The notes under the pieces were generated by a model that saw only the letters and a program-made list of their open reading frames with translations, did no database searches and was not told the origin of the DNA. From Schmidtea polychroa (Eukaryota), in assembly GCA_044892525.1 (NCBI GenBank), contig CM097885.1, positions 19,532,001-19,596,000 of the forward strand: a stretch of DNA of 64,000 nucleotides. The letters are read 5' to 3'. The translations under genes and the position numbers were made by a program. Positions 6,868 to 63,207 of the stretch are shown here, in pieces (the first letter of the stretch is position 1; each line of letters opens with the position of its first letter).

Positions 6868-7723
6868 AATTGAATAAATTGAAATAATAAATTTATTAAT
6901 TTTATATATTGCAAATAAAATCAAGTAATAAGATCGAATTGAAAAAAATTTCTTGTGGGGGTAATTAACTCACTAATAATTTGAGTTATATTTATTGTAC
7001 TATTCTATCCAATCTTAAAAAATGTATCTGATTTTTTAGCTCTAACATTTAAATCATTTTTAATTAATATATAAAAATTTAATTATCGCACTATAATAAT
7101 ATTAATAATAATAATAATAATTGATAAAGATTATTTTAGTAATCGAAAATTATTTTATTTTTTTTAAATATATACTTTGCAACAAAAAACTTATATTATC
7201 ATTTACTTCTTTAAAATAAAAAAAATAATATAATAATAACAAAAACAAATTTTTCTTGAAAATTCATCCATTCCTTAATCGCATATTTTAAACACTACAA
7301 ACCCTAAACACAAGAATTTTAAACCTGTTTATCTTTATGTCGACACTGTTTATCTTATAATATTTATCTTATAAACTTAATTATTTAATTTAAGTATTAT
7401 AAATAGATGATTGTATTGTGACTTATAAAATTATTGTGCAAATTATTATTAACTGAATACAATAATGCATATTTTATATATTTAAATTTCAATCGTTACG
7501 GTAAATTTAATTAAAATACATTTTTTAATATTTAAATAATTTTAATTGTTTCAATATAAATATTAATCGAAACTAAATAAGTTATGCATCATTCGATAGA
7601 ACAAATTCGATTATCAGATAACATTGAAATAAAAATTCATAATGACGATTAAAACTAACAGAATTATTAAAGTTTTCTATTTTATAAACATCTATTATAA
7701 TATAATAATAATATCATTTACTA

Positions 7724-7875
7724 TAAGAACTTTTTTACCAATTTCACCACTGATTTTTTTCCATTGATTTTATTAAAAAGAGCTTGAAGATTATAAATCA
7801 GTAATTATATCGATGTTTTTGATATTAACAATGATATAATTACTGATTATAGTCTTCAAGCTCTTTTTAATAAAT
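7724..7875. repeat. Foldback copy of a dispersed repeat family
   Basis: Arm ttattaaaaagagcttgaagattataaatcagtaattatatc followed by its near-exact reverse complement; related copies at ~10381, 15640-16020, 24588, 26735, 31040 and 40375. Confidence 0.8.
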
Positions 7876-9435: not shown

Positions 9436-10380
9436 AAATATCTTTCACAAGTTACTTACTTTCACAACTTTGTAGTACAACGCAGTTGGTTAATGAAATG
9501 AATAAATAATTATAAATGCAATATGTATTACCTAGTGAACGAAGAGATGCATTTTTTATTGTTTGTATGGTCTTACTTAATTACATCTGTTACGTACAAA
9601 TAATTTTCTGAATGTTAAATGGTGACAGTAAGTATAAGCAACATGGATACATTGGGGAACTACAGCAGCAGAATTGTATCGCATGACCTTATAAAGCACG
9701 GAACCGTTTTCCGGGGAACTTCTATACTCCCCTCATGCCTGCCCCGATAAAGCCCAAAAAACTTAAAAGTTACAAAATGGCTTCTCAGATAAACTATTTA
9801 GATTTTATGTTTAAATATTGCTTTTATTCTGTAACACAATATTATATAATAAAAATTAAAGTAAACTCGGATTATGTACACTTGTGAATTTTTTAAACAT
9901 TAATCAAGTTCTAGTGGAAGCAAAGAAATACAGGACAAATACAGTGTAAGCAACTATTCAGTGTAACATAAAGACTTAAACCAAAAATTGAAAATATGAG
10001 TTATAAGTGTTGAAATAATCCGACTTAAATATTATATTGATTTGAATTTTGGCCTAATAGTCATGGTACTGGTAACTAAATTTGTTGAATCAAATGACTT
10101 TTTTTAATTTAATAGATTTTTAATTTGTATATTAATTTTAATTATTATGATTAACATCTTTGTGTGGTTTGTTAACATCCACGTGTTTTGTATTTATTAT
10201 TACGTAATTTTTTGGAATGAAAAATTAAAAATCTAATCATAAGAGTCTTAATGTAAAATTAAGCCGTTATTATTTTTTAGCCAGTTCCTTATCATATACC
10301 TATATTAACAATACATTTTTAGTGCATTTTTATTAAATTTTTAGATGAAAATTTTATTTTAATTATATTTTTTATTTTCA

Positions 10381-10512
10381 AATTTTACCACTGATTTCTT
10401 TTCCATTGACATTGTGTATTTATTGAAAAGCTTGACTATGAATCAGTAAATATATCGAAGTTTTTTGATATATTTACTGATTCATAGTCAAGCTTTTTAA
10501 TAAATACAATGT
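10381..10512. repeat. Foldback copy of the dispersed repeat family
   Basis: aaaagcttgactatgaatcagtaaatatatc and its reverse complement separated by a short loop. Confidence 0.8.
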
Positions 10513-13399
10513 TAATATCTTTTTGATCAAATTTTACTTCAAAGCAGCAAAACAATATTTATGAAACCAAACTCCAAATTTTAGTATAAATAAGCCTTCG
10601 TTTAACGCTAGATTTTCAGGAACGCAACCTGAGCGACTAAATGAGTTATGCTTATGTTTGTGTTAGTTTTTATATGCATAATTTTAATTGAAAAATTTTA
10701 TTTATTTTAATTTCTTAGAAAATACGTCGAAAGATTTAAATAGGAATAGAGAAAATTGATCTTATCGGAAAATGATATCTAATTTAAAACTAATTAATAT
10801 TTCTACTTATTCTATTTATTACAATCCTTGCCACTTTTTCATATGTTTAAAATGCACACAGTACAGCTAAAATAAATGTGACAATAAATTTATTGATCTT
10901 CTGTCATCTATCAAAAATTATATTAAAACTGATAGTATTGATTAAGGTCAAAGAAAAACCGTATCAAATATTTCATTGAAATTGCTTTTATCGTTTCATT
11001 GCATTTTTAAAAGTGCCACAGATTTGTTATTTAATCAAATTTTATTTCTCATTACAATTGTCATATGAAATTAATTGACCAGCAAATGCTTTATCTCGAT
11101 TAAAATTTGCATATTCTCTTTTAATCTTATTTTGTCTTATTATCTAATTTAATACTTACTTAATATCTAAAACTAATGTTATAGACATGAGAAATAAAAT
11201 ATAATTAATCCTGGGATAACACGGAATCCTGCAAGACAGTAAAATTCACATTTATGAAATTACTTAAGAAGAAGCTATCTTACAATGGCTTCATCAAAAT
11301 AATTTCCAAATATTTTTGAATAATATTTATTAATTTCTAAATTTTGATATTTTTTTAATTTTTTAAGAAATTTAAAAATTAAAAATAACTTATATTTTTC
11401 TAAAATAAATTTACCAATAAAATCAACAAAATTAACTTAAACGATGAAATTTTCATAAAATCTTGACAATAATTTGTTGGCAGTTATAACTTCATTTTCA
11501 AATCGAGCCAATACTTCAATAAAATTTATATTTGGAAATAGTTTATCACTTCCACTCAAAGCATAAACCATATTTTAAGCAATACACATGTATTTCTTTT
11601 GTATTATACGAATCGTATAAATATATATGTATAAATATTCTATGTTTCATTAATTTTTCTACCTTTTCTGAAATCCTAAAATAAATCAGCAGATGCTACT
11701 GCAAATGAATCTTTAGCACACAAGTGAGTTAGTATGTATCTTATAATATAACTTATTGATTTTTTTTTATAATTCTAGACTATTTTAATCTATTTCAACG
11801 TGGTGTATTAGCATGCAATTTGTACGCCATACTCACGAAATGTTTTTGTGGTTTCACGGGGTGGACAATATATACATATGTCCAAATATCTTAATATTAT
11901 CTGTAATTTTGTTAGAAATTTTGGTGGTTGGGACTAGATTCTTACGTGTTAGAAAATATAAATTAATCTTTATTATTGGCCCTGATGGCCAAAATATTAT
12001 TTAAATTTTTATATTTATGTTTTTTACTATTGTAATTAAAACAATAATAATAAAATTAAAAATTTATTCTCTATAACAAACTAAAGTTGATCATAGAAAA
12101 TTACAAAAAATTTAAAAATAGAAAAATATTTCAATAAAAATATTTCAATAAAACATTTCAATAAAATTAAAATTATAAATTTACAAAAATGCTTATTTAC
12201 TACGATTCTCGTCCGTAACAACATTAATATCTGGTTCAAAATCACTAAATAATTCCATAAATTTTATTCAATAAATTTTACACTCAAAAACTTGTCTTTC
12301 TCATTTTTGTTATTTAAACAAATTTCAATTTAAGAAAATTTAAGAATATTTCAGCTTCCTCACACTGATTGTTCTTATGAACAAATTATTGAGCGTAACA
12401 TTTAACAAAATCATAGGTAGTCTATGTATATTAGTGCTCGATTGAAGTAGTCTTTAACAATGTTATAATTAATCAAAGTATATTTATTAAATTAATTTTT
12501 TGTTTGTTTTAATAGATTTTTCTAGTAAATCATTGAAAATACTTTGTAGAATAGGTTTTTGCAATCGAATAACCTATGAAACTTTGAAATCCACCGAGTA
12601 GATGTCTGTGAAATCAAAAAAGAAAGTTTTAGTGAGATAGAAAAATTAGAAGTGGGATAAAAGATTATAGGGAAAATATACCTTACCTATCTTGCAAAGA
12701 GGTCTATTTTAGTGAATTGGTAGCATTTCCCCTTTGGTCCAGCTGGTTCACTAAGTACAACTGTAGTGCGAATACACCAATGTTTTAGTTCGTTATCACA
12801 ATTATCAATAACATTTTAAGAATCGAAATATTTTGTTAAAAAATCGAAAAAGACAGACAATTTATTCTTTGGAACATTAATTTTCTTCCAGTAGATTACA
12901 CCAAATTTGAAAGAAAATTATTATAATATTATTCTGTGTACATTGTAGCATAAACGTTCACAGAGTCACTAGAACGATTTAGCAATTGACATACAAACAT
13001 CTCAGCTGTCTCCATACAGATTTTACCGTTGACTCGATTGAACTCTACAGATTACCTAAAACATATTATATATCTAGCAATAACATTTAAATAACGATTC
13101 CGACAAATATGAATAGCTGGGAAACCATATATGTGAGAAATAATTTGAAGGAAAATATTATACTAAACATTTATCCGAAATATCACTCCGTATTGTCTTT
13201 CTCGGTGTATGTTTGTATTAATAATAAATAATAAATCCAGAATAAAATTTCAAAAACGGAACTCCCAAATTATATTTAATTAATAATCCAACAAAACAAA
13301 CAGCTGGGAAAACCTACCTTCATCCGGAAATTCAAAACCAGCTCAATCTTGTAAAAATTCCGAAGGAAAGCAATAAAATTTGGAACCCGATTTACATAA

Positions 13400-14692
13400 T
13401 CATCGTCGTTTAAGGAGTTTCTGGAAACTATTTCGAAATTCTCTGTTAAGAATGGTGTACAAAATCGGGTTTATAGAACTGTTGGCATAGCCGAACCAAG
13501 TGACAATAATTTGCAGCCAGCGATAAACTGGGCAAATGGATTCGCTACATAAAGCTCGCACCATGTACATAATAGTGAAAGGAATCCAGCATAAAATAAA
13601 AATAACCATTATTAATAACATAATTTTCGTGGCGCGAGTCTCTCGTTTTTCAGCTCGAACTATGCTATTAGCTCGTCGTCGTTTTTTGTAATTGGATCTG
13701 TAGCTTTTTTTAGTGAATTTCTTTGTATCCTCATTGGGGATGAGTTCTGAGTTGTTTGTGTTTAATTTCATCTCCCATAAAGGTGTCTGTGGCAGCAGAA
13801 ATTCCACTGATATGCATCGTAGACCCTGTTTGGATTTCTTTTTGGAAATTGAAGATGCTATGGCTTTCAGTTCACTCGTTTGCACAGAACAATCGGGATC
13901 CGAACTATTTTCATCGGTTTCGGTGTGAGTTTTCATTGAAGAAATAAATTTTGGTTTTAACAATGTCGCAGTTGGTTGGTTGTCTGACGAGTAATTATCC
14001 TCTGTATTTTGAGTGTCTGATTTGGAAAAGAGGTTCTTTTTTTGATTGATAATTGTAAATATTCGAATGTATACACCTGACATTATGATTAAAGGTAGAA
14101 TGAAAGATCCCATTGCGGAATATATTACATAATACGGTTCATTGAATAACTGACACTGATATTGATGGGTGCTGTTGTCGTATTGTAAATTATTAAAAAA
14201 CTTTATAACGGGGTTTTTAAAACCATTTCCAGTCCAGCCAATAATTTGTGGGATGCATATTATTGAAGATAAAGACCAAACGACAATAATGTAAGGTTTC
14301 GTCCGTCTGACGTGAGAACTAGACCTATACCAGATTGGAAACTTTGTGGCGGTGTAACGATCACAGGCTATCATCACCAGACTCCATACAGAGGCTGTAC
14401 AATACAAAACATCAGTATTGAGCCAAATGTTACAAATGTGAACTCCAAATGGCCAGTGTCCACAAAAGTCATTGACAATCGCTAATGGTAAAACTGTAGC
14501 TGCCAATAACATGTCACTCAAAGCAAGATTGCCGATTAATAAGTTTGCAGTTGTTCTCAGAAATCTGTTATGGGAGATTGTTATAATGATGATCAAATTT
14601 CCTATGATAGTCCACAAGGTTATCATTGAAGGAACAATTGAAAATATATACAATGCCCAATCTGGAATGGATTCCATTTCAGAACTAATCAA
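13400..14692 (-). CDS. Class A GPCR, biogenic amine receptor (tyramine/octopamine/adrenergic-like)
   Basis: Uninterrupted 430-aa ORF with 7 TM segments: GN (TM1), LALSD (TM2), amine-binding Asp in DVLYCTAS, DRY, TM5 YSAMGSFILP, long ICL3, CWIPF, WFGYANS and NPILY. First ATG is at 14677; an upstream exon is possible. Confidence 0.95.
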   Translation of the reverse strand: MISSEMESIPDWALYIFSIVPSMITLWTIIGNLIIIITISHNRFLRTTANLLIGNLALSDMLLAATVLPLAIVNDFCGHWPFGVHICNIWLNTDVLYCTASVWSLVMIACDRYTATKFPIWYRSSSHVRRTKPYIIVVWSLSSIICIPQIIGWTGNGFKNPVIKFFNNLQYDNSTHQYQCQLFNEPYYVIYSAMGSFILPLIIMSGVYIRIFTIINQKKNLFSKSDTQNTEDNYSSDNQPTATLLKPKFISSMKTHTETDENSSDPDCSVQTSELKAIASSISKKKSKQGLRCISVEFLLPQTPLWEMKLNTNNSELIPNEDTKKFTKKSYRSNYKKRRRANSIVRAEKRETRATKIMLLIMVIFILCWIPFTIMYMVRALCSESICPVYRWLQIIVTWFGYANSSINPILYTILNREFRNSFQKLLKRR

Positions 14693-16920
14693 AAGAACTA
14701 TTAATGAAAAGATTTTTAAAATAATTTAAAAATAATTCAGTTTAAAGTGACCATATAAATATATTTTTTGATTTGACAATATTAGAAAAAGAAACTCACA
14801 TATTTACTACCGATTTCAGTTTTGAAAACTATATAAATTTGAAGCATTTTATTTATTTGAAATTGTGTCAAGAAATTATTTTGTTTTGTTTCTACTTCAT
14901 TATTCTTACAATAAATTACACTTTATAAACTCTCTATTAACTTCACTTTGTATGTATGTTTCAATGTTTGTATGAGTCACGTAAATCTTGTGGCGGCAAA
15001 TTAACCTACTTCCCGTGATTTGATCGACCTGAAATTTGGCAGATAGATTAGTCGTCCAGAACAATGCACTCTTTTAAAATTTCAGATCGATCGAAGGTGC
15101 TATAGAATACTTTTTGAAACATTTCAATTTCATTAATATTTTCAAAATTTCTTTCAAAATATTAATAAAGTGGTCCTTTCAAAGTAATTTCTTAAATAGG
15201 TGATTTTTCATAATATTAAATATTTCATAGCATTGAACACATATTGAAATTTTAATTTTGAGAGAATGTAAAATAAAGAGAAAATATTAAAAATTATATT
15301 TTTACGGTTAGTTTTCTATCAGTTAATTACATTTAAAAAAAATTTAAATGATAATTTAAGCCTTTTGCTGCGAATAATATATTTAATACAAATGAAAGGA
15401 TACAGAAACCTTTTTTAAAACTAATATAAAAAATTAATTTTAATTTTAAAACTAAAAATTGTTTTTATACAAAATATTTAACAAACAAACATCATCCCAA
15501 ATATTAAATATACAAGTTAATTTATTATTTGGGATGATGTTGTTTGTTAAATATTTGTACAAGATTGTTAACAATTTTGTGCGTTTTATTAATATAATTT
15601 TTATATCAAAACGGATCAAAATCACTTGAAAAAGGCAGTGCCGAAAATTTGTGAATATCAAAATGAGAATCGATATATTTACTGATTTCAAGCTTTTTAA
15701 TAAATTACATTTTTATATGATTAAATAAAATGTTTTTTTAAATTTTTATAAAAATATCTTTTTTGATACAGTTTGATTACGATTATTAGTGGTTAATTTG
15801 TTTGAATATTATTATTTTCATTTAGTTGTTATTAATACAACTATTAGTCTGAAGAAGACTGTTAAACGTTGTAATTATATAGAAATGTTATATTTTAATA
15901 TACTTTGTTGGTGATTTTCTATTTATATATACATTGATCTCACCAAAGCTTGCATATGAATCAGTAAATATATCGATGTTTAAAAAGGCAGTGCCGAAAA
16001 TTCGTAATTATCAAAAACATTGAAATATATATATGTTCTATTATTATGTTCAAGAAAATATCCCAAAACCCCTTTCAAATCATAATAAAAATTCATGCTA
16101 ATGACTAAAAATATATAAATATTTTATACTTCGATTTATGCTATATTTTTTGTTTTTATACGGATAAAAGAATATTAAGTGAATGTTTTATTAATATCCA
16201 CCAAAGCAAAGATTTTAATGGGAAAATGTTCCCAATTACTTAGTTCGGAAATCGAATATATTTTGCCCTCTTGAAATTCAGTAACATATTTGTCATCAGT
16301 TAATGGGAAAAAGATATTAAATTCAACAAGGCATAGAATAGAGAAGATTATACCAGTTCATTTGACTGTATGAAATTAATCATATCCCCAATAACGGTTG
16401 ACAGATAACACGCGGGAAAAAACAAAGTTGAACAATGAATTCCCTTTACTACAAAATGAATTTACAATAGATTTGAGTTTGTAATTGAATTCTTTTCGCC
16501 AATTACTTCAAGCTATTACTTTTTTCTGAACAATTTAAAGACCGTGAAACGAAATTATGAAGAAAAGTAATTTTTATTTTCGTTTTTAACAAAATTCATT
16601 TTTTTAGATTCATCCAATCGGAATTGATTTCTCCCCCCCCCCCTAATAAAACGGATAAATTCAATTTTGATCATGTAATAAAAACTATCATTTCCTCGAA
16701 CACAGTTGTTTGAAATATTTTTGTAGAATTTATAAAAATATTATTTGTTTTAATTAATGTCAAGAAAATAATTTAGATATTTTTTTAGTAAAAAAATTCA
16801 TTATCAGCAGCAGAGGATGCTAAGGTTTTTCATGATCAAAGGTTTATGGTAAAAAATGAGATCGAGGAATAGATTATTCGAAAAAATATGCTATTTTTAT
16901 TTATACAAAAATTTTTATAT

Positions 16921-19221: not shown

Positions 19222-19948
19222 TTAATTACCTAAACTAAGTTACCTAATTTAAATGAAGATAAGGCAATTGAAGTCTTTTACATAATTTATTTTTGTTGAA
19301 TTAAATAATACAAATAAACAGTAAAGAATTGGTGAAATTCTATAAAATGTAAAATATTGAAACCATTCAATTAAGTTACCCGTGACATTGTCTCCATATT
19401 TAAAAGACGTAGACCATAATTAATTAAAATTTAATTGCGGAAAAGTTAAAATATTTACTAAGGTTTCAATCAAATTTATTCTTGGACTAATTAATAAAGA
19501 TATTTTTAAGAATTTCAATTATTTTTTCTTATTCGTCTTTCCAGATTTAGTTGGAAGGTTTAGTTTATTATTCTTTAATAATTTAATATTTCTAAAGCTT
19601 CTAAATAATAATATTTACTTGTTTATTATTTACTTGAAGTTATTTATATTTTATTTAGTATTATAATGATTTTATAAATTTATTTTTTCATTATTATTAT
19701 TGTTGTGAAGATTTCTTGGTGACAGCATTAATTAAATGTTAAACAAGTAAATAATAATATAAATCTTTTGCTTCAAAGTATATATTGAATAAAATTAAAA
19801 AAATTCGATTATAAAAATAATTTTTACCAATTCTTGTCAATTAATAAGAATTATTTTTATAATCGAAAATTATTTAATACGTACTTTGCAGAAAAAGACT
19901 TATATTACAATTTACTTGTTTATTAATAATAATAATCATAATATTATT

Positions 19949-20686
19949 TGAATAAGTCCAATAACAATTATCAAAATTTTATTTCCCGCCTCTACAGGGC
20001 CGCGTGGATCAGTTTTGAATAATACCAGTTTGTCCATTTCAATGTCATGTCCAATGTCAGATTTTACTCGAGCTGCTTCCATTTGTGCACGATAAACTTG
20101 CGATCGACAATCAGGGATCATACCAATCATAACACCTCCAGTACTTTCAGTAATATTAAACGATCTCGTAGCTGAACTCGTCTCAATCATTTTATCGGGA
20201 ACTTTTCCTTGGAAAACAGTATAAATGAGATCGCCTTTCACAAAGTTAATATTTTGAAAAGATGTAAGACAGAATTTCTGATCACAACCTACATCACATC
20301 GCAAATTCATTTCGACCGCCATTCTTTGAATTTCATTCATCATAATCTAACCGATTTCAATTCCAAATACCTTCCAAAATCGCCGTTTAAACCACAATCA
20401 ATTTAAAAACAACTCCAGAAATCACAACAAAATTAAATCCAGTTTCTACAACAATTAATTTTAAACTACAAACCAAAATTTAGAACAATTCACCACCAAA
20501 TCAATGATTTCTACAAAAACTAAATCAAAATTATACTTACAAAATACCAAACCTACCAACTCTTCGCGTCTGTGTGCGCACACCAACCAGAATCGGTCTA
20601 ACCAGACCGCGCACACAGACGCGATAGAAAAAAGGCATGCAACGAACTGCCAGTCAGAGGCAATCCCCCTCTGACTGGTCGAAACA
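19949..20686 (-). repeat. 3' LTR of the BEL element (738 bp)
   Basis: Near-identical to 23681-24573 apart from two missing 78-bp units, one substitution and one 1-bp indel that I could see. Confidence 0.95.
19999..20268 (-). pseudogene. Proteasome alpha1 (PSMA6-like) fragment within the 3' LTR
   Basis: QGKVPDKMIETSSATRSFNITESTGGVMIGMIPDCRSQVYRAQMEAA...FKTDPRG aligns by eye to PSMA6 [47 protein letters not shown]...YKCDPAG. Confidence 0.85.
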
Positions 20687-20698
20687 TTTCCCCCCTCC
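20687..20698 (-). other. Polypurine tract
   Basis: GGAGGGGGGAAA on the minus strand immediately before the 3' LTR. Confidence 0.9.
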
Positions 20699-20955
20699 TT
20701 GATCCCTTCTAGCGGATCAACCACCCATTTACTTTAGGGGAACCTTTCTTTTTGCATATCTCCAATACCTCTCACACACCCATCTTTCTATTGTATAGGC
20801 CGCCGCACCACGCACCTTTTTCTCCTCCCACCATCGCCATACTCGGCCAAGCCCCTGTCACTGTTCATTCTGCTTAGGTTCAATATCTCCATTCTTCTTC
20901 CTTCATTCTTCGCCAATTCAATAGTCCCCACTTTTCCCTGTTGCATTTCATTTAA

Positions 20956-22155
20956 TTAAGGGGAACCAGGTGAATAGTCTTCAATGATATCATCTAAAGC
21001 AGACGTTGGTTGAGTGAATGTATTTTGTTCAGAATCTTTAGCTGTGTCGGATGTATGACAATTAACAATATCGACTCTAAGATCACTGTCATTGCTCTCA
21101 GAATCTGGCATAATTCGATCAGTTTCTAAATGATTTTCTGAGGAAGCAGAATCCGCTTGAATATTAACTACGTCTTCCATGTTTTGAAAATTATCTACTA
21201 CCAAAGAATTCGGTCTTTCGATAACATTAATGTCGACAACATCTGTGCCTAAATAACTATTATGATTTTCATTCTTGTCTGACACATCTACTTCAGTTTC
21301 ATCATATTTACTTTCAAAATTTTCTTCTTAATTGTGAGTTTTGACAATATTTTCTGATTCATCTGCTGTAACTTGGTCTCCTTTATCAAAATCTTTGTCT
21401 AATAGTTCAGTATTATTTTTTACAAATTCAGAATAATTATTCTCGTTCTCATTGACTCGATTTTGCTCTATTTCATCTTGATTTATAATATCGTTAGATT
21501 GTAAATTATCCCATTCATTGCTTTCACTATCTCCATCTTCGCTAGCATTTTTGTTTTCATGTGTTTCATCATTTTCATCACATTCTTTAATATAATCCAT
21601 TTCTTCAGAATTATCTACATCATGAATAATCATTTCTCCGTCATTTTCATCTTTATTATTTTCGATATCTGAATCCTTTTTTGAATCGGAAGGATTTATT
21701 ACATCTATGGAATCTATTTCGTTATTCTCAAGGAAATTTTGTGGATTACCGTCATCTTGAGTAATATGCTTTAATTCATCACAATCCTTTATTTTGTCAT
21801 AATTGTTAAATGGGTTTTGATTAAAATTAGATTCGTCAGTTCCTCCAAAATGGAATATTTGCCCATCTAAATGACTCTGAGCTCCTTGCTCCTCATTAGA
21901 TGTCTTACTAATGTCGAGTTTTGTGTCCTCAATTCCCCGCAATGCATGTAACTCGTCATTTAACATTTTCGTTACTGCAAAATAACTCCGAGCCAAATGC
22001 GAACCTCTTGGAGCTTGATTTCTTGCAATTGGTTTTCTCTCCATGAAGTTTGTGAACTTCTTCAATTTCCCCACATCCTTCCTACTCTCTGGAATTCTCT
22101 CCCCAAACAATATATTCAAGGCTTTTCGATGCCTATCGGCTTCTTGTTGATCCAA
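20956..22155 (-). pseudogene. Gag tail running into a D/E/N-rich coding segment that replaces pol
   Basis: ORFs 21328-22155 and 20956-21285 are in the same frame, separated by one TAA; no protease, RT or RNase H motifs. Confidence 0.7.
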
Positions 22156-23027
22156 TCGGCTAGAGTTTGTACATTTCCTTCTCTCCCCGAATCACAATGG
22201 CGTGACCACTGAATCAGCATGGTCTCTGGCAACTTCTTCAGCAGTTGATGATACAACATTCTGTTGTTCAACTCGCCTTCCCTCTTCTGTTCCTTGAAAT
22301 TCAGGATGAGGTTTCCCAGCAGCTCTTCAAACCGCTCTAGGTCCTCCAGTACGTTGAGCCTCACTGGAAAAAACCTCTGCACCGCGTCCAGCATCATTGA
22401 ATAGGATCTTTCTGGTCCCCCATACCTCTCATCCAGTAATTTCATCGCCGCCTCGAAAGCCTGCGAGCCATATCCAATATAGGCAATCAATTGCAACGGC
22501 TTCCCTTCCAAGTACTGTCTCAGGTACAAGTACTTTCTCTCACTCGGCTCATCTGTGTCCTCGATGCAGGCTCTCACAATTGCCCTCCATCCAGGATACT
22601 CCATTACCTTTCCATTAAATATCGGCAGCTGTAAGGGTTTCAATCCCATTATGAACTTCGGTTTTTCATTGGGCTCTTCATTCCTAAATGATTTCTCTGG
22701 GACCTTCCGCGACTCTACTCTAAAACTTTCTTCCTTCTGCGTGAGGACCAGATCACCGATTCTGCTAAAATCCGCTTCTATTCGTCTCAGATCTGCCTCA
22801 ATTTCCTTCGCTTCTTTCTCCCGTCCTAACTCCAGAGCATTATTCTTCAGCTTCTCAAATTCGTTCATGACTTCCTCATACTTGTCTTCGTATGCCTCCA
22901 TTCTCCTTTGTTCTTCCCCATGGTCCGATCCATCTCCTAAGGCCCGGTTACGTAGACGCCCTAACGAAATCTTCCACCCGGTTCGTCTTTTGTAACCGGC
23001 CTCGAACTCAGCATCTGATACTGGACT
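22116..23027 (-). pseudogene. gag: BEL/Pao Gag (DUF1759-like), frameshifted near 22145
   Basis: Coiled-coil N-terminus, [27 protein letters not shown] and LLDERYG motifs typical of BEL/Pao Gag. Confidence 0.88.
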
Positions 23028-23492
<465 letters not shown>

Positions 23493-23662
23493 CTAATAGG
23501 GTTAGGGAGGGCAGGCCTTAGGGGAAATGTTTCAAACAAATCAATACATGTCAATACATATAATATGATAAAAATACAATACATATTACATATATATATA
23601 ATACAATACAAATAAAAGACAAACAATATATGTAACATACCTTGTTCCGGCTGGCTAGCCGG

Positions 23663-23680
23663 AACCACGCTCTGCTACCA
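23663..23680 (-). other. Primer-binding site, complementary to initiator tRNA-Met 3' end
   Basis: TGGTAGCAGAGCGTGGTT directly after the 5' LTR; metazoan tRNAiMet ends ...CUCUGCUACCA. Confidence 0.85.
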
Positions 23681-24573
23681 TGAATAAGTCCAATAACAAT
23701 TATCAAAATTTTATTTCCCGCCTCTACAGGGCCGCGTGGATCAGTTTTGAATAATACCAGTTTGTCCATTTCAATGTCATGTCCAATGTCAGATTTTACT
23801 CGAGCTGCTTCCATTTGTGCACGATAAACTTGCGATCGACAATCAGGGATCTTGTCCATTCCAATGTCAGATTTTACTCGAGCTGCTTCCATTTGTGCAC
23901 GATAAACTTGCGATCGACAATCAGGGATCTTGTCCATTCCAATGTCAGATTTTAATCGAGCTGCTTCCATTTGTGCAAGATAAACTTGAGATCGACAATC
24001 AGGGATCATACCAATCATAACACCTCCAGTACTTTCAGTAATATTAAACGATCTCGTAGCTGAACTCGTCTCAATCATTTTATCGGGAACTTTTCCTTGG
24101 AAACCAGTATAAATGAGATCGCCTTTCACAAAGTTAATATTTTGAAAAGATGTAAGACAGAATTTCTGATCACAACCTACATCACATCGCAAATTCATTT
24201 CGACCGCCATTCTTTGAATTTCATTCATCATAATCTAACCGATTTCAATTCCAAATACCTTCCAAAATCGCCGTTTAAACCACAATCAATTTAAAAACAA
24301 CTCCAGAAATCACAACAAAATTAAATCCAGTTTCTACAACAATTAATTTTAAACTACAAACCAAAATTTAGAACAATTCACCACCAAATCAATGATTTCT
24401 ACAAAAACTAAATCAAAATTATACTTACAAAATACCAAACCTACCAACTCTTCGCGTCTGTGTGCGCACACCAACCAGAATCGGTCTAACCAGACCGCGC
24501 ACACAGACGCGATAGAAAAAAGGCATGCAACGAACTGCCAGTCAGAGGCAATCCCCCCTGACTGGTCGAAACA
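23681..24573 (-). repeat. 5' LTR of the BEL element (893 bp) with PSMA6-like ORF and a 3x78-bp repeat
   Basis: ORF 23551-24231 starts in the LTR, contains three IPDCRSQVYxAQMEAARxKSDIG units and reads through the PBS. Confidence 0.95.
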
Positions 24574-24587
24574 TTATTATTGTTTTA

Positions 24588-24774
24588 TAAGAACCTTTTA
24601 CCCAATTTTACCACTGATTTTTTTTCCATTGAATTTATTAAAAAGAGCTTGAAGACTGTATATCAGTAAATATATCGATGATTTTGATATATTACTGATT
24701 AATAGTGTTCAAGCTCTTTTTAATAAATTCAATGGGAAAAAAATCAGTGGTGAAATTGGAAAAAATTTCTTATA
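24588..24774. repeat. Foldback copy of the dispersed repeat family
   Basis: About 85-bp inverted arms around a short loop. Confidence 0.8.
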
Positions 24775-26307
24775 ATATTATTATTGTTATTGTTATTATT
24801 ATTATTTATTTCATATCATGTTTTAAACTTAATCCTATCCGGATGTGAATATAAGTTCGTATACTGGATTAATTTATTATATTTTAAAACATTCAATAGT
24901 TTTTACATATGTCAATAATTGACAATCATATATTTTGCAGATAAAAAAATTAATATATTGAAAACTTGACGAGCACACTCATTTTATTAAATATGCACAA
25001 TAATCACTAATAGAAGCAACTAGAACATCTTCTAAAATATTTTTTAAATCAGGTTCAAAAGATAACGTCATAATAACAAGTATTTATTTAATGAAATATT
25101 GGTTAATTTTCAAACAAATTTTCAGCCTTGAATAAATATTTTCAGGTTAATTTATTAAACTTTTCGATATTTAAAATGTATTTATTTAAAAATTATTTCC
25201 TATTAAAACATATTTAAAAAATTAGTTATATAAAATTTTTTCGTAATAAAATCTCTTTAATTTAAAATTTATTTTAAAACTTATTTAAATGTCCATTATT
25301 TTCATTTAAAATTATTTTAATAAATTATTGATATATTCAATTCTCAGCTGAAGACATCTTACAATCACAATTATTTATTAATATTATTTATTATTGTCTA
25401 TTTACTATAGAGAATAGAAAAACCGAATAAAAAGTCAATAAAAAAATTAACTATCTTGATTTGCGTGTATTTTATATTATGTGTGCTGTGTTTGTATGTA
25501 AAATTATTCTTCTGTCACTTTCTCAATTCGGAACATTAAATTTTCGCACACAGGTAAGTTTGTGTGTCCTATATTATAATTTTATCGATTTATTTAGATT
25601 ATAGAAACTTTTAACTTTCGGAATTAGGTGTAAAACCTCACTCGTCTATAGAAAATAAAAAATATCCCTTTATATTATTAGACAATGTTTAGTTTGAATG
25701 AAGATATTCTTAAAAAAGAGAATTTACACAATTTAATAATTACTTTTTAATATTGACCTATCAAAGATTATTTTTCCGTGTAAAAATTCATCATTTACCT
25801 AACGAAATGAGGAAATAAACTACATTTCAGTTTAGGTTCGGATTCTGTTCCATTAATGTTTCATTAATATTTGACTGGCTCTTGATAAATGCTGTACGGA
25901 AAATTTGTGATTATCCTTAAGAATTTGATTGATCTATTGCTATTTAATAATGAGAATTTATTAATATTCACTTTTTATTTTTATTATAGTTTCACTTATT
26001 TCAAACATAAAAAGAAATTTTACTTTTGATTAAATATATGATAAAGATCAAATATAATTTTAAAACTTCAATTATTTTTGTTTCTATTTCGTTATGATTC
26101 TAAAGAAAATTCAACTAAATTCCATTTATTATATTTTACGAAATATATAATCTCACTAATGAACTAGGCATAGCAGAATGAAAATTATTAGAACAAATGA
26201 ATAATTGAAATAACCTGATTTACATTAGGCTTATATGTTTTGAGTAGAAATATATTTTTCTTATATAATATCTTTTCCAATTTATTATAATGATGATAAT
26301 TTAATAT

Positions 26308-26455: not shown

Positions 26456-27687
26456 TTAAACAACTAAATTATAAGATAAATTTTTGTTATGTAAAATAAA
26501 ACTATATATTAAATTGAAAAGTTTTAGATTATCGGAAAGTCCTTTTTAATTTCTCAAAATATAGTTGTTTCGATTTTTAAATGCTTTTTGGTCTTCTTAT
26601 ATAAGTTCATTTTAAATTCATTACTTACGTGATTAACACTTAATTTATGCTGCTATCAATAAATCATCATTTAAAAATAAAAAAAAATAAAAATAAATTA
26701 TAATAAAAATAATAATAATAATAATATTAATAATATAAGAACTTTTTTTTCCAGTATCACCGTGGATTTCTTTTCCATTGACATTGTATTTATTAAAACG
26801 TTTGACTATGAATCAGTAAACTTTTATTTACTGATTCATAGTCAAATTTTTTAATAAATACAATAATAATAACAATAATAATAATAATAATGACAAAATA
26901 AATCTTCCTGCTTAATTTTTTGGCATCTCTCTTCGTGCAATTTATTGATAAATATCTACAGAAATTTCATGAATTTAATCCATATTTAATTGAAATATTC
27001 TAAATTATTCATTTTCTGAGAATATCTTTTTTTATAAAATTTTTATACAATTCAGTATGACCAGGAATAACCAGGATAAACCTTTTCATTGATTTCAAAA
27101 AGGCGTTCAATGAAAACAAATACTGCTTATTGAGTAACAATAAAGAAAGTCTAAAGAATATAAATTGATATTAGTTTTAAAAATGACCCCTTCGTCTTAA
27201 CACTAGGCTAGAGCCAGAATTAATGCACGTTGCAAATTCATTCTACAATTCAAAATTAAATATTTTATTGGTAACATAAAGACAAAACCATTTATAAACA
27301 AAACATGTTGAAGAATTTAATGGAAATGAAATTAGAGCTAAAAACTAAAAATTGAAAGCTTTAATGATTTGAATAAGTTTGTCCAAGTTATTTCTGGTCA
27401 TCTTCTATAACCAGTGATGAGATGAATGCAGCTTGATCTGAACTATACAAGCCGATTATTAATTATTTTATGAATATAAGATCCAACTGTTAAACCTATT
27501 CAAATTATGCAATAATATTCAATTGCCACAAAATGTAATAACTTATAAATAATTGTTATGTAATAGTACAAAGATTCTCTAAGGCTGCATTACTAATCCC
27601 TTACATAACAAACCATAAAAGTATTACTATATCACAATAATGGAACTTTTAAATCTTATATATATAATTGTGAATGTATGTATGTAT

Positions 27688-38990: not shown

Positions 38991-40374
38991 GTATCAATTG
39001 CTTTTTAAAAAATACAATATATAAATTGTGTATTTATTAAAACTATACAGAATGTATGTGTGTGCATTTATTCTACTTATTTATTAATAAAACTGTATAG
39101 AATATGTCTTTGACCTACATAATCCAGTGATGTCCTATTTTTAAAGTCGATTTGACCTACATAAAATCTGAAAAAAATTCATGAAAATAGCTTAAAAATC
39201 GCGAAAAATAATAAAAATTTGTGAAAAACTGAAAATTATGAAAAATGTATTTTTTGGCAAAGCCCTTCATTTGGCAAATCTCATCACTATCCACAAGATT
39301 GTATTTGTTCTTTTCAAAATTTTATATAATGTTTTAGCTTGGTTATTGAACATGCTTCAAAAGTGTTGCTTCTTTCAGATTAATTTCCAGAACTGCAGAT
39401 ATATTTCTGGCATGGAAAATTTAAATTATATTTCTGTTACCATTAATTCAAATTTTGGCGTACTAATAATCCTAATTGGCATACCCTTTGTATAAGCAGC
39501 AATCAGTTGCATCTGTACTTGATGATATGTTTCCTTTGAAGGCTCCATAAACTTCATTTGGCGCATCTTTAAAATAGAAAGTTTCCATTTATTTTGATCT
39601 TCCATCAATGAACATCGTTAAATCCAAACATTAACATGATGTTGGAAGATATATTAATTCCTAGCGTCAATCATAGAAACAATAATTCCCTCATTTTATT
39701 ATATCTACAGTTGATCCGATTTCAAAGTTCCCTCACGCAAATATATATATCCTTGATACGGGAAATGGTGCCAATTTTATATTTATGAATTTAATTACAA
39801 TTTTCTTAAATGTTCTCTGTATTTTTGCTTCATTTAAACAAAATTCGTTTACTTTATCAAATTAAAATGTTAACAACTTCAGAATTAAGAAAGATAAATC
39901 AAATCCAGCCTAAGCACTAACAATAATTATATTTTTATTATTATTTCGTGTTCTATTTGAGACCCCTGAATTCAAATAAATTTTTAAGTGATATTCATTG
40001 TAATTTCGAATGAAAAATTAGTTTATGATCAAACAACAGCATAGTGTACACTCCACCACCAAGTCGAATAGAATGTCACATTTCATTTTGTACCTGTCTT
40101 ATCAAAAATATAAATACATTTAATATCTTACAGACTAGGCTTATAAAAAACTCACATAATCCATAAGTCACTAAATAGGTATAAACACAGTTAACGTTTG
40201 CAATAGCATCTAATGGCGGTAAGTGAAAAAATAGAATCAAACAGTTTTTTAATTTATGGTCACAAAATTGCTAGGTTCGATTCCGGTTGGAATCGAGTTC
40301 TTACATAGTATCGATAATAGCCAAATAAGCTAAAAACTAGTCTGACACTCGAAATAGTATTTAGTATCATTTTT

Positions 40375-40565
40375 ATAAGAACTTTTTTCAATTTTCACCA
40401 ATGATTTTTTTTCCATTGAAATTGTATTTATTAAAAAGCTTGACTATGAATTAGTAAAGATCTCGATGTTATTTTACATCTTTTCTAATTCATAGCTACG
40501 TTTCTTAATAAATACAATGTCAATTGAAAAGAAATCATTGGTAAAAATTGAAAAAAAGTTCTTAT
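40375..40565. repeat. Foldback copy of the dispersed repeat family
   Basis: ataagaactttttt... arm and its reverse complement. Confidence 0.8.
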
Positions 40566-40596
40566 GAAAATGATACAAAATGCGATACAAAACTTT

Positions 40597-48763: not shown

Positions 48764-49104
48764 TGTGCCCGCTAGATCACATCCCCCTCCCGGCCGGAAA
48801 AATTTAAAAAAAAAATTTTTCAAGGTCAAATTTTAAACAAAGACATATGACTCATCAAGGTCATTGATGCAAAGACCATGACTCATCAAGCTCATTCTCA
48901 AGGTCATATGACTCGTCCAAGGTCATTCTCAAGGTCGTATGACTCATCCAAGGTCATTCTCAGGGTCGTTTGACTCATCCAAGGTCATTCTCAGGGTCGT
49001 ATGACTCATCCAAGGTCATTCTCAAGGTCATATTATTATTTTTTTTAAATATTATTATTTTATTATTATTTTTCAAAATATTATTATTTGATCTAGCGGG
49101 CACA
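48764..49104. repeat. 16-bp inverted repeat enclosing a ~30-bp tandem array
   Basis: tgtgcccgctagatca (48764-48779) / tgatctagcgggcaca (49089-49104); unit tgactcatccaaggtcattctcaaggtcgta at ~48848-49030. Confidence 0.85.
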
Positions 49105-54818: not shown

Positions 54819-55957
54819 TGTAGTGAGCCGTTACACGGCCTTAACAATATCTATATACTTATTATACTATATTATATTATATTATATTATATATAAATGC
54901 GCGGTCACCAACGAATAAGGACCAAACAGAACACAAGTATAGTCAATCAAAAGTCGTGCGATCAGCTAATACTTCTACTTATCAATCAGGCTCTATTAAT
55001 CAATCTCAGACGAGTAAAGCAAATTCGATGCCATGTTATCATTATCAAGATAAACTGTATTCGGCTCCCAATAGTTTTAGTGTTGGCTCTCATAGACCAA
55101 CACCCTCATCCATTACAATTCGCGAAAGACGGAACAAATCCTAACAATAATATGAACCCGAAAAGATCTTTTTATCAAACCACCACACGTCTTTACAAAT
55201 TCTGATCAAGGTGATAATGCAAAAAAGGATCAGAACGGCAAAGGATATACATTTCCTCAAATATTGTATGCGAATGAGAATGGTCAAAATGGTTCATGGA
55301 CAAATCGGCAGGCTGTAAAATCTTTAGAAATAATCGGACTATATGAAATTATTATTTTTAGTTAACATTTTGTAAATGAGAAATGCCTGTTGAATATGTT
55401 TATCTGGTCTGATTATATTTTCATTTTTTATATAGTTTCTATAATATATTTTTGTTTTACTTAAATAAGTGAAAATGGTAATTTAAATAAAAATTGTGTA
55501 AATCGAATTTATTATATAAATTGTCTGACTTTAAATTGAATTTAATTACTTTTCTTCTCAAATGATTTTAAAATTATTTAGATTACTGATATTGTTAAAT
55601 TTCATAACCTCGAACAAGGAGGAAGTATGTAAGGATATTAATTCATCTGATGATAGGTATTCACAAATCGTGTTATTGAATCACCTTCCATTTGGTCTTG
55701 TTAATAAAACTAATATCATACAAAAGATAATCATGCTAGATGAGTGGGACGAATGTATTAAATATTGTTGTGACTACAAACAATGTGACGCGGTTTTGTT
55801 CAATACTACCCATTGTAAAATAATTCATTGCGAAAATCCATCATTATGTCAGCCAGAAAAAAAGAAAACTGAAGAATTATTTTGCGTTTTCTCGAATAAT
55901 GGTCAAAGAAATGATTCTATTGCCAAATCACCAGAAAGGACTACGCCAACCACAACA
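54819..55957 (+). repeat. 5' LTR (1139 bp)
   Basis: Matches 62085-63207 except for about three substitutions and a 16-bp indel. Confidence 0.97.
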
Positions 55958-58549
55958 TTGGTGTCAGAAGTGCCAGAACAATGTTCAAGATTTGAACATT
56001 TAGAAACTTATTTAGCGGCTAATATCATTGCTAAATCCAGATTACAGGAAATACAATCTATGTTAGTTTCTCATAAACGAACAGTGGAATTACGTCAAAA
56101 TATGTTCCATATGCTTTCCAAAATATTTACTGAATTAAAACTTTCATCAAAATTTAATCCTATATCCCATGATATTGATAGGCTGATAGATCATTTGATA
56201 ATTGCTCATTCCTGTTGTTTGTCATCAAATCGAGAAGAGTATATCAAATTAATTCAGACAATTCCAGATCGTGATTCTTTGGATCCCGTAGTCGTTCTAT
56301 GTGATTCCATTTAGAGCCCTGCAAATATCACAGATAATAATCATATTCCAAATGGTCAATTTCAAATTTCTGACCCGATAAATAAATCGTCTTTCAAATT
56401 TATCAGTAAAAGTATTCAATTACAATCTGAATCATCGGATACTAAATCCGAATTTTCCCTATTCAGTGCTTTCAATAGCTCAGCTGGTAATGATATTACT
56501 GAATTCCACAGTACACTGAATTCCACATCTCCCCTGTTACGGCTTTCAGATCAGAAATCATTTATGAACAGTTTGAATTCAGTTGGTTCGTCGAATTCTC
56601 TGCTGGAAAGTTTCTGCCAGTTAAATTCTCAAAACCACGCCGCAATCAAGAATAACAACAATAATAATCAGTCATACCATCACAACATCAATCAACAGGC
56701 AAACAACAACGGTGTGCTTAACTACGGTCAGTATCAGGATCGAAACGAAATGGATATAAATCGCATATTTGGCTCGGAGAAACTGAATTCACATTACGAT
56801 CAGAAATATAAAGATACAGCCGATATAGATTTTGATTCGATTAATGTTTCCCGGCAAGCATTGGCTGAGATGATTGCCGTTGAAAATCGTAAAAAAATGA
56901 CTCCGATCAATAATTATATACCAAATAACAAATTGCTAACGAGTGAGGTCTTATACACAGCCCCACAACGCATCATGCTTCGACCAAATCCAAATGAATT
57001 CTTAATGCAACAGAATAATGATTTTTTCACATTAAACTCTCGTGCACCGGGACAGCCATTTATTCACGATAATAAACCATCTCCCAGCGAATCGAGACTC
57101 AATCAAGCAATGCCCGTGTCAGCACCGCCAGGTACCTTAGATCGATTACCTCTAAATTATATTATTATATTATTAAATTATACTATATTATTATTGATTT
57201 ATATTATTATTGATATCATATATAAAATTATAATAAATTATTTAAATAAGCATCAGCCCACACGAGAGGGTAGCGCCGCACCGGGGCCCAAAAAGTTCCA
57301 AATATTACTAGAAAACCCTGGAACAAATAAGACACAAACCGTTTCAGTTGACACAGACACTACAATTAGAGGTCTTTCTAAAAATTACAGCATATTGACT
57401 AATCACAAATGCCGTTTTCTCTTGTCGTATAACGGCAACATTATTTCCGACAGTCGTACCTTGGGCGACTATGGAGTGACACCATACAGCGTCATTCATT
57501 GTTTGTTGCCATTTTTTGGCGGTTCCTCCGATTCGGAGAATGACTCAGGCAGCAACCCCAAACAGGCAAAACATAAACGTAGGTCCAACAACCAGCGATC
57601 AACGTACTTATGTCAATATTTTTTGGATGAGAATAACTCTCCACTTACTTGGCTGATAGCTACCGAACTAGCACTCGAGGGAATCGAGGTAACCAGTTCA
57701 CGAGACAAATACTGTCGCATCTTGCCGTTGATTCCGCCGACGATATTATGTAAACTTTCGTCCGTGATCCTTCGCACTTCGCCTACTAGCGTAAAAAACC
57801 CATATGAAGAATTGCGTACGGCAATCCTCGATATTTTTAAGGAACCTACAGCTGCCGTCTTCACTAAATACTTTAAGATGCAAACTTTGGGCAGCAGGAA
57901 ACCATCACAGTTCTTGCAACACGCCATGGCGGAACTAACGCAAATACATCCGGAGGCTGCGGCGGATCAAAAACTCTTGAGGCAATTTTTTCTGTCCGCT
58001 TTACCGCCACACGCACAACAAATTTTAGCGCTTTCGTCAACAGCAGACGTGGTAGAGCTAGCAAAGATGGCCGACAAGATTAACGAAGTCGTGCCACTTG
58101 GTCCGCAACCAACTTGCTCTGTGCAGTTAAGTAGCAGCACTAACCCCGAAATTTTACCTTCTTCTTCTTCTTCTTTGAAACCTTCGACCGAAGAAGCCTT
58201 ACTTTGCGCTATTACAGGCCTCACTAAACGCATCAGCGAGCTTGAGAATAGCATGTCCACCAGGCGGACAAATGACGACAGGCAATATGCCCAAAAATCA
58301 CACTTTGTGCAAAATACTCGTCAACGTTCACCTTCCCCTGCAACCAGGAACCTGTGCCGTTTCCATTTTAAGTTTCGTAACAAGGCACGGTTCTGCCATC
58401 TAGGTTGCAATTGGCGAGATAAAGCACCATCCTGTCAGATACTTGACAAGTGCATATACCACGACAGGTTCGGAGATAAAGCCTTAAAATGCTTCGAAGG
58501 CTGCTCCAATTACACAAAACCTAAAGCAAACAATCAAAAAAACTTATAA
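55562..58549 (+). CDS. gag: Extended Gag polyprotein frame: signal peptide-MANEC-linker-[TAG]-N/Q-rich region-hydrophobic segment-UBL-Gag
   Basis: ORFs 55562-56314 and 56564-58549 are in the same frame and 56315-56563 is stop-free, so the only interruption is TAG at 56312-56314. Gag motifs NPYEELR, LGSRKPSQFL and two CHCC knuckles. Confidence 0.8.
55959..55972 (+). other. Primer-binding site (tRNA-Leu type)
   Basis: TGGTGTCAGAAGTG one base after the 5' LTR. Confidence 0.85.
57296..57523 (+). other. Ubiquitin-like domain, 76 aa, ending FFGG
   Basis: FQILLE...KTQTVSVDTDTTI...LSYNGNIISDSRTLGDYGVTPYSVIHCLLPFFGG, compared with ubiquitin [34 protein letters not shown]. Confidence 0.9.
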
Positions 58550-58582
58550 TGCCACCACTTCTAGCGGCAGAGGTGGGAGGCA
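58537..58582 (+). promoter_or_regulatory. -1 programmed ribosomal frameshift signal (gag to pol)
   Basis: A AAA AAC heptamer at 58537-58543, then a hairpin tgcc-a-ccacttct...agaggtgg-ga-ggca starting 6 nt downstream; pol is in the -1 frame. Confidence 0.8.
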
Positions 58583-61500: not shown

Positions 61501-61915
61501 CCAAAATATAAATTTGTGCCGACTTAAACCTGCTTTCATGATTTCTGATGACGTGGACGAAAACAAACTTCACTCTGATTTAGAGAAAGTCTCAGTCGAA
61601 CCCATTCCAACTACGTCGAACGAAAACCCTTCAGTAGAACCTGCCACAGACTCAAACGAAATCGCGCGTACCTTGATCACAAACTACCAACGCGATATAA
61701 AGTTAGCTACAGAGAATACACATCCAGCAACAACAAATCCACTAAATCTTCGCTCAATTGTTTCGAAACCCGACAAGCAGCAAACCGCGAAAAATGTGAA
61801 AAATAGTGATAAGATTTGGGTGCGCCAAATTGGTGAAGACATTTCCAAACCTCCAAGACTTGCCAGAGTCTATTCCAATGAAAATTTGACACATCTGATG
61901 CTGAAATTCACTTAA
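58549..61915 (+). pseudogene. pol: Pol (protease, RT, RNase H, integrase) with a 1-bp insertion at ~59527
   Basis: LVDTGS, IDLVKAYHQI, MP(a)FGLRN, YIDD, TDAS, HHCC, HIDLVGP, TDRGSQF, MIERFH and GPY motifs. Confidence 0.95.
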
Positions 61916-62084
61916 CTTTATTCCATGTGATCAATTAATTCATCAATCGCCGATTTCCTTTTTAGACACTATCCACCTTTGATAAATTGTCACTACTCTT
62001 CGACTTACATCTTGTTTCTAGTAGATCTTTCATCAATCTCTATTCTTGAGTCCCTGTGCGCTCCGCGACTTCCCGTGGGGCTGA

Positions 62085-63207
62085 TGTAGTGAGCCGTTAC
62101 ACGGCCTTAACAATATCTATATACCTATTATACTATATTATATTATATTATATTATATATAAATGCGCGGTCACCAACGAATAAGGACCAAACAGAACAC
62201 AAGTATAGTCAATCAAAAGTCGTGCGATCAGCTAATACTTCTACTTATCAATCAGGCTCTATTAATCAATCTCAGACGAGTAAAGCAAATTCGATGCCAT
62301 GTTATCATTATCAAGATAAACTGTATTCGGCTCCCAATAGTTTTAGTGTTGGCTCTCATAGACCAACACCCTCATCCATTACAATTCGCGAAAGACGGAA
62401 CAAATCCTAACAATAATATGAACCCGAAAAGATCTTTTTATCAAACCACCACACGTCTTTACAAATTCTGATCAAGGTGATAATGCAAAAAAGGATCAGA
62501 ACGGCAAAGGATATACATTTCCTCAAATATTGTATGCGAATGAGAATGGTCAAAATGGTTCATGGACAAATCGGCAGGCTGTAAAATCTTTAGAAATAAT
62601 CGGACTATATGAAATTATTATTTTTAGTTAACATTTTGTAAATGAGAAATGCCTGTTGAATATGTTTACCTGGTCTGATTATATTTTCATTTTTTATATA
62701 GTTTCTATAATATATTTTTGTTTTACTTAAATAAGTGAAAATGGTAATTTAAATAAAAATTGTGTAAATCGAATTTATTATATAAATTGTCTGACTTTAA
62801 ATTGAATTTAATTGATTTTAAAATTATTTAAATTACTGATATTGTTAAATTTCATAACCTCGAACAAGGAGGAAGTATGTAAGGATATTAATTCATCTGA
62901 TGATAGGTATTCACAAATCGTGTTATTGAATCACCTTCCATTTGGTCTTGTTAATAAAACTAATATCATACAAAAGATAATCATGCTAGATGAGTGGGAC
63001 GAATGTATTAAATATTGTTGTGACTACAAACAATGTGACGCGGTTTTGTTCAATACTACCCATTGTAAAATAATTCATTGCGAAAATCCATCATTATGTC
63101 AGCCAGAAAAAAAGAAAACTGAAGAATTATTTTGCGTTTTCTCGAATAATGGTCAAAGAAATGATTCTATTGCCAAATCACCAGAAAGGACTACGCCAAC
63201 CACAACA
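62085..63207 (+). repeat. 3' LTR (1123 bp)
   Basis: Preceded by gtggggctga (weak PPT), followed by TSD ATATC. Confidence 0.97.

Follow-up and report, generated by a model that had tools for sequence, protein, structure and literature searches.

LTR retrotransposons can take up pieces of host mRNA. In LTR-mediated retroposition, as set out in the available text of Tan et al. (2016, PMC5131818), pieces of spliced mRNA are captured with microsimilarity at the joints, several parental genes are combined, and further rounds of copying follow; the retrocopy takes the place of some of the internal ORF sequence. Maize Bs1, cited in the same paper, is a non-autonomous LTR element carrying fragments of several host genes; its cargo is flanked by the element and, in that account, no ubiquitin release module is mentioned. 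BEL/Pao elements, including the planarian Flow families (de la Chaux and Wagner 2011, PMC3118150), are described in the accessible text as having LTRs, a 5-bp target site duplication (TSD), and the DUF1759, Peptidase_A17, RVT_1, and DUF5641 domains in one long ORF. The word "ubiquitin" is absent from the main text of that paper, and the part consulted mentions no ORF that starts in the LTR and contains host cargo. The giant planarian gypsy elements Burro/GYPSM1 (PMC6431247, available part) contain host-like domains, including ubiquitin-related ones, in their polyprotein; these extra domains are located behind Gag in a giant ORF. Outside the retrotransposons, the genome of the pestivirus BVDV CP Rit (PMC8310069, available part) carries host ubiquitin without its first residues and other host mRNA sequence upstream of it, and cellular hydrolases give the next protein a defined N-terminus.

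The window analyzed here, a 64,000-nucleotide stretch of the Schmidtea polychroa genome, contains a BEL/Pao element that combines features of these systems. As in the system of Tan et al., spliced mRNA has been captured by an LTR element, judging by the intron loss in the family copies; however, the host sequence is located within both LTRs and in frame with Gag rather than in place of internal ORFs. The domain set in one long ORF, the LTRs, and the 5-bp TSD are shared with the BEL/Pao elements of PMC3118150. Like maize Bs1, this is a non-autonomous LTR element with host-gene pieces, but here the cargo is in the LTRs and is accompanied by ubiquitin. It resembles Burro/GYPSM1 as a planarian LTR element with host-like domains in the polyprotein, whereas its host pieces are truncated, neutral, interchangeable, and placed before Gag. 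The likeness to cytopathogenic pestiviruses is in the host-derived ubiquitin, which has host sequence upstream and would serve as a processing site. In these RNA viruses the insertions are sporadic and cleavage is known from experiment, as far as the consulted text goes; here the design is fixed family-wide in a retrotransposon and cleavage is predicted.

The layout can be regarded as LTR-mediated retroposition to which a ubiquitin processing signal has been added; it is set apart from described cases by the location of the cargo inside the LTRs and its frame link to Gag. No description of it was found in the literature searched, including the available texts of PMC3118150, PMC11410931, PMC6431247, PMC8532177, and PMC12801592; Repbase, supplements, and most subscription papers were outside the scope of this search. 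Our preferred reading, which we consider probable, is that the cargo found in the window, a piece of the proteasome subunit gene PSMA6, is host mRNA sequence held in both LTRs in the ubiquitin-Gag frame and drifting neutrally, and that it is a stop-free filler before a Gag whose release is predicted to occur at the ubiquitin Gly-Gly.

Architecture of the window element

A young non-autonomous element occupies positions 19949-24573 of the window on the minus strand, as do all its parts given below, and is bordered by the TSD TTATT at 24574-24578 (its 5' side) and 19944-19948 (its 3' side). The 5' LTR (23681-24573, 893 bp, TG...CA ends) and the 3' LTR (19949-20686, 738 bp) differ by a single substitution, an indel of 1 bp, and two additional in-frame 78-nt units (156 bp) in the former, which has three such units vs one in the latter; the earlier sequence-only reading had not mentioned these three units. 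The primer binding site (PBS, 23663-23680) is complementary to the 3' 15 nt of the genomic tRNA-Met(CAT) plus CCA, and a polypurine tract (PPT) is located at 20687-20710. The TG...CA ends, TSD, PBS, and PPT identify the repeats as true LTRs of a recent insertion. The tRNA-Met(CAT) genes form a 454-bp tandem array (L239, G000:C1, about 79.33-79.39 Mb), and a 22-nt tRNA-Met 3'-end pattern has 1226 matches genome-wide.

An ORF (23551-24231) is initiated in the LTR by an ATG at LTR nt 343-344 and goes through the PBS, which is read as HGSRAW. It begins with an N-terminal module of 44 codons (24100-24231), present in about 123 candidate copies, for which no source was found: there was no tblastn match to six host alpha-subunit loci, and all ESM Atlas matches of the N-terminal 46 residues were under 0.9. 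Then follow the PSMA6-derived piece (23938-24099; host CDS 154-315, 91% DNA identity), two more in-frame 78-nt units repeating PSMA6 CDS 246-323 (23774-23929), and, past a 108-nt in-frame deletion, a second PSMA6 piece (23724-23780) corresponding to host CDS 425-481, that is, residues 142-160. An AATAAA hexamer (23710-23715) is located within the ORF, 35 nt from the LTR end, which would place the cargo in R. After the PBS, a splice-donor-like AAG/GTA (23635-23643; the slash marks the putative cut) is found, as in 71 of 90 family leaders. In retroviruses, a splice donor can suppress polyadenylation in the 5' LTR; by analogy, the donor-like site might do the same here.

In the window copy, the LTR frame stops in the leader at 23551-23553, before ubiquitin, and the frame to Gag is not kept. 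Ubiquitin 1 (23256-23480) lacks its own Met, ends with RLRGG, and is out of frame with the LTR ORF; ubiquitin 2 (23028-23255) ends with GLAGG and contains a stop at 23154-23156. The N-terminal part of BEL/Pao Gag (22116-23027, DUF1759) follows directly, its frame ending at 22116. Further downstream, acidic filler ORFs (20956-22191) stand in place of pol; this filler, with its long open frames behind Gag, is shared with the pol-less copies L079, L085, and L086. A domain search of the ORFs revealed no reverse transcriptase, RNase H, or integrase in the window element. With no pol and with frame breaks in the leader, ubiquitin 2, and Gag, this copy is a broken passenger of the family and was probably mobilized in trans. 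By its domain content, it belongs to BEL/Pao: DUF1759 is present in the window, and DUF1759, Peptidase_A17, RVT_1, and DUF5641 are present in the relatives L081 and L082, which have the same PBS and LTR design. The Gag of the window element is 37% identical to that of L081, which has a complete gag-pol frame and still carries cargo within its LTRs.

Several other features can be noted in the window. The element adjoins a short AT-rich, MITE-like repeat with inverted similarity, located at 24574-24806, 7697-7875, 10371-10517, 26702-26871, and 40361-40569. A single-exon ORF of 441 aa at 13400-14725 (minus strand) encodes a rhodopsin-family GPCR (PF00001, E 1.5e-55), amine-receptor-like by eye, and a tandem array of about six copies of 31-bp units is located at 48838-49041.

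Source and exchange of the LTR cargo

The ORF 19939-20346 (minus strand) in the 3' LTR matches PF00227 (E 1.1e-5; 25.6 bits vs a cut-off of 22.4), and its top PDB matches are PSMA6 chains (E 2e-13). Both LTRs carry PSMA6 pieces, as the earlier sequence-only reading had proposed, and PSMA6 and ubiquitin sequences, its two ubiquitin-proteasome components, are indeed both present in the element. That reading had drawn the fragment at 23731-24156; its PSMA6-derived part is at 23724-24099, and the stretch beyond it belongs to the N-terminal module. In the 3' LTR, the first piece (20042-20211) corresponds to residues 52-107, with 11 non-synonymous and 4 synonymous differences from the host, and the second (19992-20048) to residues 142-160. 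The host PSMA6 gene was found in the same genome (locus L097); it encodes 247 aa and has three introns, after CDS nt 73, 314, and 683. The identity of the 3' LTR to this gene is 89% over CDS 154-323 and 84% over CDS 425-481. The pieces are joined by a deletion between two TATGA motifs, which is in frame, as had been noticed, but spans 36 codons rather than roughly 40 residues. This 5-nt microhomology pertains to the internal deletion rather than to the original capture junctions.

Residues 1-51, 108-141, and 161-247 are missing from the window fragment. Of the marks of full-length PSMA6, neither the PF10584 signature nor purifying selection was found: only residues 52-107 and 142-160 are present, and omega is about 1. 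An AlphaFold2 model of the single LTR ORF, built without an alignment, had a pLDDT of 33 and is uninformative. The closest database relatives of one longer family copy are flatworm PSMA6 proteins.

The absence of introns had been taken as consistent with capture from mRNA. The window copy extends just 9 nt past intron 2 and by itself is no test of intron loss; the argument holds from the family. Among 172 distinct alignments of family copies, the junction of intron 1 is crossed ungapped in 35 of 36 and that of intron 2 in 85 of 87. Since the longer family copies lack the host introns, capture of PSMA6 from mRNA is supported. Host exon 2 is matched at 97-100% identity by some copies, and the family LTR 5' end was found near 28 of 29 such near-host copies; therefore, capture was recent and divergence arose within the element lineage. 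In view of this nearby LTR end, the explanation of these copies as a PSMA6 pseudogene or segmental duplicate of the host was rejected.

On a first look, 1376 (protein) and 1326 (DNA) candidate PSMA6-like places were found, of which 150 and 40 were scored. One PSMA6-like copy (L098, G000:C3:79622736-79623114) reaches CDS nt 681, while the usual end is at 562, perhaps owing to a longer or separate capture. Eight PF10584 matches checked as possible host genes turned out to be alpha-3-like fragments or nothing. Many degenerate fragments, alpha-3-like by eye, were noted among the 80 PF10584 matches (L036, L088-L094), which suggests a second amplified capture. There are also two intron-containing alpha-5-like loci (L032 and L035) and a duplicated alpha-6-like locus (L033 and L034, 11.7 kb apart), all labeled by eye.

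PSMA6 is not the only cargo. Among 62 LTR ORFs with a length of 100 aa or more, 31 architectures were distinguished, and the Pfam domains in their representatives are proteasome (11), EAP30 (4), TCP-1 (2), Ras (2), and DSPc, RING, Adaptin_N, and LIM (1 each), with none in 12. Thus, pieces of SNF8, phosphatase, CCT, Rab, and other genes can stand in PSMA6's place, and equally intact elements exist without PSMA6, although it is the commonest single cargo, being present in 40 of 90 PBS-anchored loci. The PSMA6 pieces vary widely in their end points, some being reduced to residues 40-74, and tandem duplications also occur; residues 51-150 are retained most often. Most LTR ORFs share a similar tail, often with AATAAA or ATTAAA 33-39 nt before the PBS. 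Given the position of the hexamer and the importance of the frame, the cargo lies upstream of the poly(A) signal and most likely in R.

Reading frame and selection

The exact PBS pattern had 351 matches; 90 elements, all on contig 1, were examined among the first 100 listed, the other ten being two already included in the analysis and the last eight of the list. This anchoring is independent of protein content; 30 loci were chosen by protein score, which favors stop-free copies. The median open run upstream of the PBS was 171.5 codons in the Gag (HGSRAW) frame vs 14 and 1 in the other two (n = 90), a contrast inflated near the PBS by fixed stops in the LTR-end and PBS motifs of those two frames. 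The AT-rich leader beyond +45 gives a fairer measure: 11, 312, and 444 stops per frame were counted there in 46 leaders of 3n length out of the 57 measured. The Gag frame contains the PSMA6 piece in 39 of 40 loci and, in 57 of 78, the first ubiquitin; it is open from the LTR Met through the ubiquitin GG in 36 of 90 elements, although the copies are related and these frame counts are not independent events. In L077, a single 1683-aa frame contains Proteasome, ubiquitin, DUF1759, RVT_1, and Peptidase_A17 domains.

The window's own subfamily comprises 36 LTRs, 31 of them scorable, with an open frame in 21 and a broken one in 10. The distance from the ATG to the hexamer is a multiple of three in 13 of 18 distinct lengths (p = 0.0009); all 6 lengths with at least two copies are 3n, whereas all five non-3n lengths are single copies. 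Single indels within the alignments are not enriched in multiples of three (12 of 41 distinct); only the net lengths are. The leader as an obligatory intron was rejected, its unspliced length and frame being conserved. A Met is found after the PBS in 46 of 46 in-frame leaders; therefore, downstream initiation is possible. Logan contigs (three runs marked "RNA?" and one unlabeled) matched 22100-24700 in scattered pieces with a mixed host PSMA6/polyubiquitin signal, and none of them reached from the LTR to Gag.

Selection was assessed by an omega based on counts of variants rather than on a tree: each distinct change from the host is counted once, and the observed mutation spectrum supplies the expectation. 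Comparison of 172 copies with host PSMA6 revealed 358 non-synonymous, 116 synonymous, and 17 nonsense changes, omega being 1.01. This comparison of the LTR copies with the host gene agrees with the neutral transduction that the sequence-only reading had listed as one of its options, and the protein sequence fits it. The omega of shared PSMA6 variant classes is 0.97-1.15, and over residues 52-101, the region most often retained, it is 1.00 and 0.97 in the full set. Changes are as frequent at codons kept in 90% or more of 120 orthologues (85/489) as at the rest (108/632). The exception is nonsense: among variants found in at least three copies, there are 2 vs 9.0 expected (p = 0.006), while among private variants, there are 11 vs 12.4 expected.

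Applied within the family, this statistic was 0.16 and 0.28 for Gag; for the Gag-proximal ubiquitin it was 0.13 and 0.42, for the first ubiquitin 0.82, and for PSMA6 0.79-0.85. The variant count thus detects constraint where it is expected and none of significance in PSMA6. Weak constraint on the PSMA6 core may exist, its omega in the PBS-anchored subset being 0.58, but this value comes from just 14 shared variants and is not significant (p = 0.35). The PSMA6 amino-acid sequence drifts neutrally while the frame is kept. The copies retain the GG before Gag in 20 of 20 and 42 of 48 cases; GD in its place is common to three subfamily-B copies. The Gag-proximal ubiquitin ends with GLAGG or RLCGG rather than the canonical RLRGG, and the conserved C-terminal Gly-Gly directly before the released protein, which characterizes a ubiquitin-fusion signal, is present.

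Proposed mechanism, rival explanations, and a second lineage

The following mechanism can be proposed. Reverse transcriptase would switch template onto a co-packaged mRNA within the LTR; of the traces of this step, intron loss and the microhomology of the deletion are observed. An insert located ahead of the terminal poly(A) hexamer of the LTR would probably be in R and so be copied to both LTRs, at the 5' end of the mRNA. The frame is open from the LTR ATG through the PBS and leader into ubiquitin and Gag, and also Pol in autonomous copies, and translation would follow it. A host deubiquitinase is predicted to cut after Gly-Gly, as ubiquitin biology and the pestivirus precedent suggest, giving Gag a constant N-terminus whatever precedes it. 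Because that N-terminus would be independent of the upstream sequence, selection would purge stops and frameshifts only, and this pattern is seen statistically. In an AT-rich genome, the survivors would be sense in-frame coding scraps, freely shuffled. If upstream sequence is disposable as long as it is stop-free, R would be the one place where template-switch captures cost nothing. What has been observed is the open frame, the neutral drift, the loss of introns, and the exchange of cargo; the transcription start, translation, and cleavage are inferred. On this reading, ubiquitin is a constrained processing module and PSMA6 is filler, and their roles are unrelated.

The cleavable leader is compatible with an adaptive role at the RNA level, in which swapped, host-like RNA ends would evade piRNA silencing or make it costly via small RNAs against essential host mRNAs, the frame being a side constraint. 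The high cargo turnover, the housekeeping genes as cargo sources, the copies nearly identical to host exon 2, and the piRNA targeting of planarian LTR elements reported in the available text of PMC8532177 speak for such a role; but identity to host DNA is not maintained (median 90%, 84-91% in the window copy), and we consider it unlikely. The LTR ORF could also be an untranslated passenger, open merely as a copy of coding mRNA, with Gag starting at the leader Met after the PBS. This Met in every in-frame leader, the omega of about 1, and the broken LTRs of the subfamily agree with it; yet the presence of unrelated cargoes and their junctions in the Gag frame, the depletion of inherited but not private stops, and the 3n lengths would be left unexplained, which makes the passenger quite improbable.

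The sequence-only reading had also raised a decoy or assembly interferer and a proteasome-targeting tag. In such a role, the PSMA6 fragment, once released, would interact with chaperones or with its partners in the alpha ring, or else direct Gag to or away from the proteasome. The prevalence of PSMA6 among the cargoes, the frequent retention of residues 51-150, and the low core omega of the small subset could be expected in this case. However, neither function is reflected in amino-acid constraint, as conserved residues are not spared and residues 52-101 evolve neutrally; the cargo is interchangeable and the pieces variously truncated and duplicated, and much of the subunit is missing from the window fragment. 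We regard both functions as very unlikely.

A second element with a layout like that of the preferred cleavable-filler reading is located at 54819-63207 of the window (plus strand). It is gypsy-type, with RVT_1, RT_RNaseH, and rve domains, and its LTRs of about 1.14 kb are 98% identical. The LTR ORF encodes a KIAA0319_N-like piece and reads through the PBS and a long spacer into a ubiquitin-like domain ending with GG and then Gag. Its PBS had 130 matches, of which 30 loci were taken, family membership being assigned by downstream sequence. The family comprises 19 of these loci, all with 46-168 open codons upstream and 17 with at least 60 downstream, and at least five different cargoes can be recognized by eye. 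The layout is absent from the 11 other elements with this PBS, which have at most 44 (upstream) and 41 (downstream) open codons. The different Pfam sets suggest that the BEL/Pao and gypsy-type layouts are of independent origin. It is quite possible, though we propose it only tentatively, that two unrelated lineages independently took ubiquitin as a release handle before Gag, thereby shifted the start codon to the LTR, and made R a platform for in-frame shuffling of host mRNA pieces; active elements would then translate hundreds of chimeric fragments of host proteins and disseminate them, which might also serve as piRNA camouflage.

The finding should not be taken as evidence that the retrotransposon attacks the proteasome. 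The more than 1,300 candidate PSMA6-like places would be a source of error in annotating genes, designing RNAi, and mapping reads in this animal, both for PSMA6 and for the other cargo genes. The second lineage with the same layout makes convergence directly testable. If true, the proposed mechanism would account for large-scale capture of host genes by an LTR element that keeps its autonomy, which a cleavable ubiquitin would make possible.
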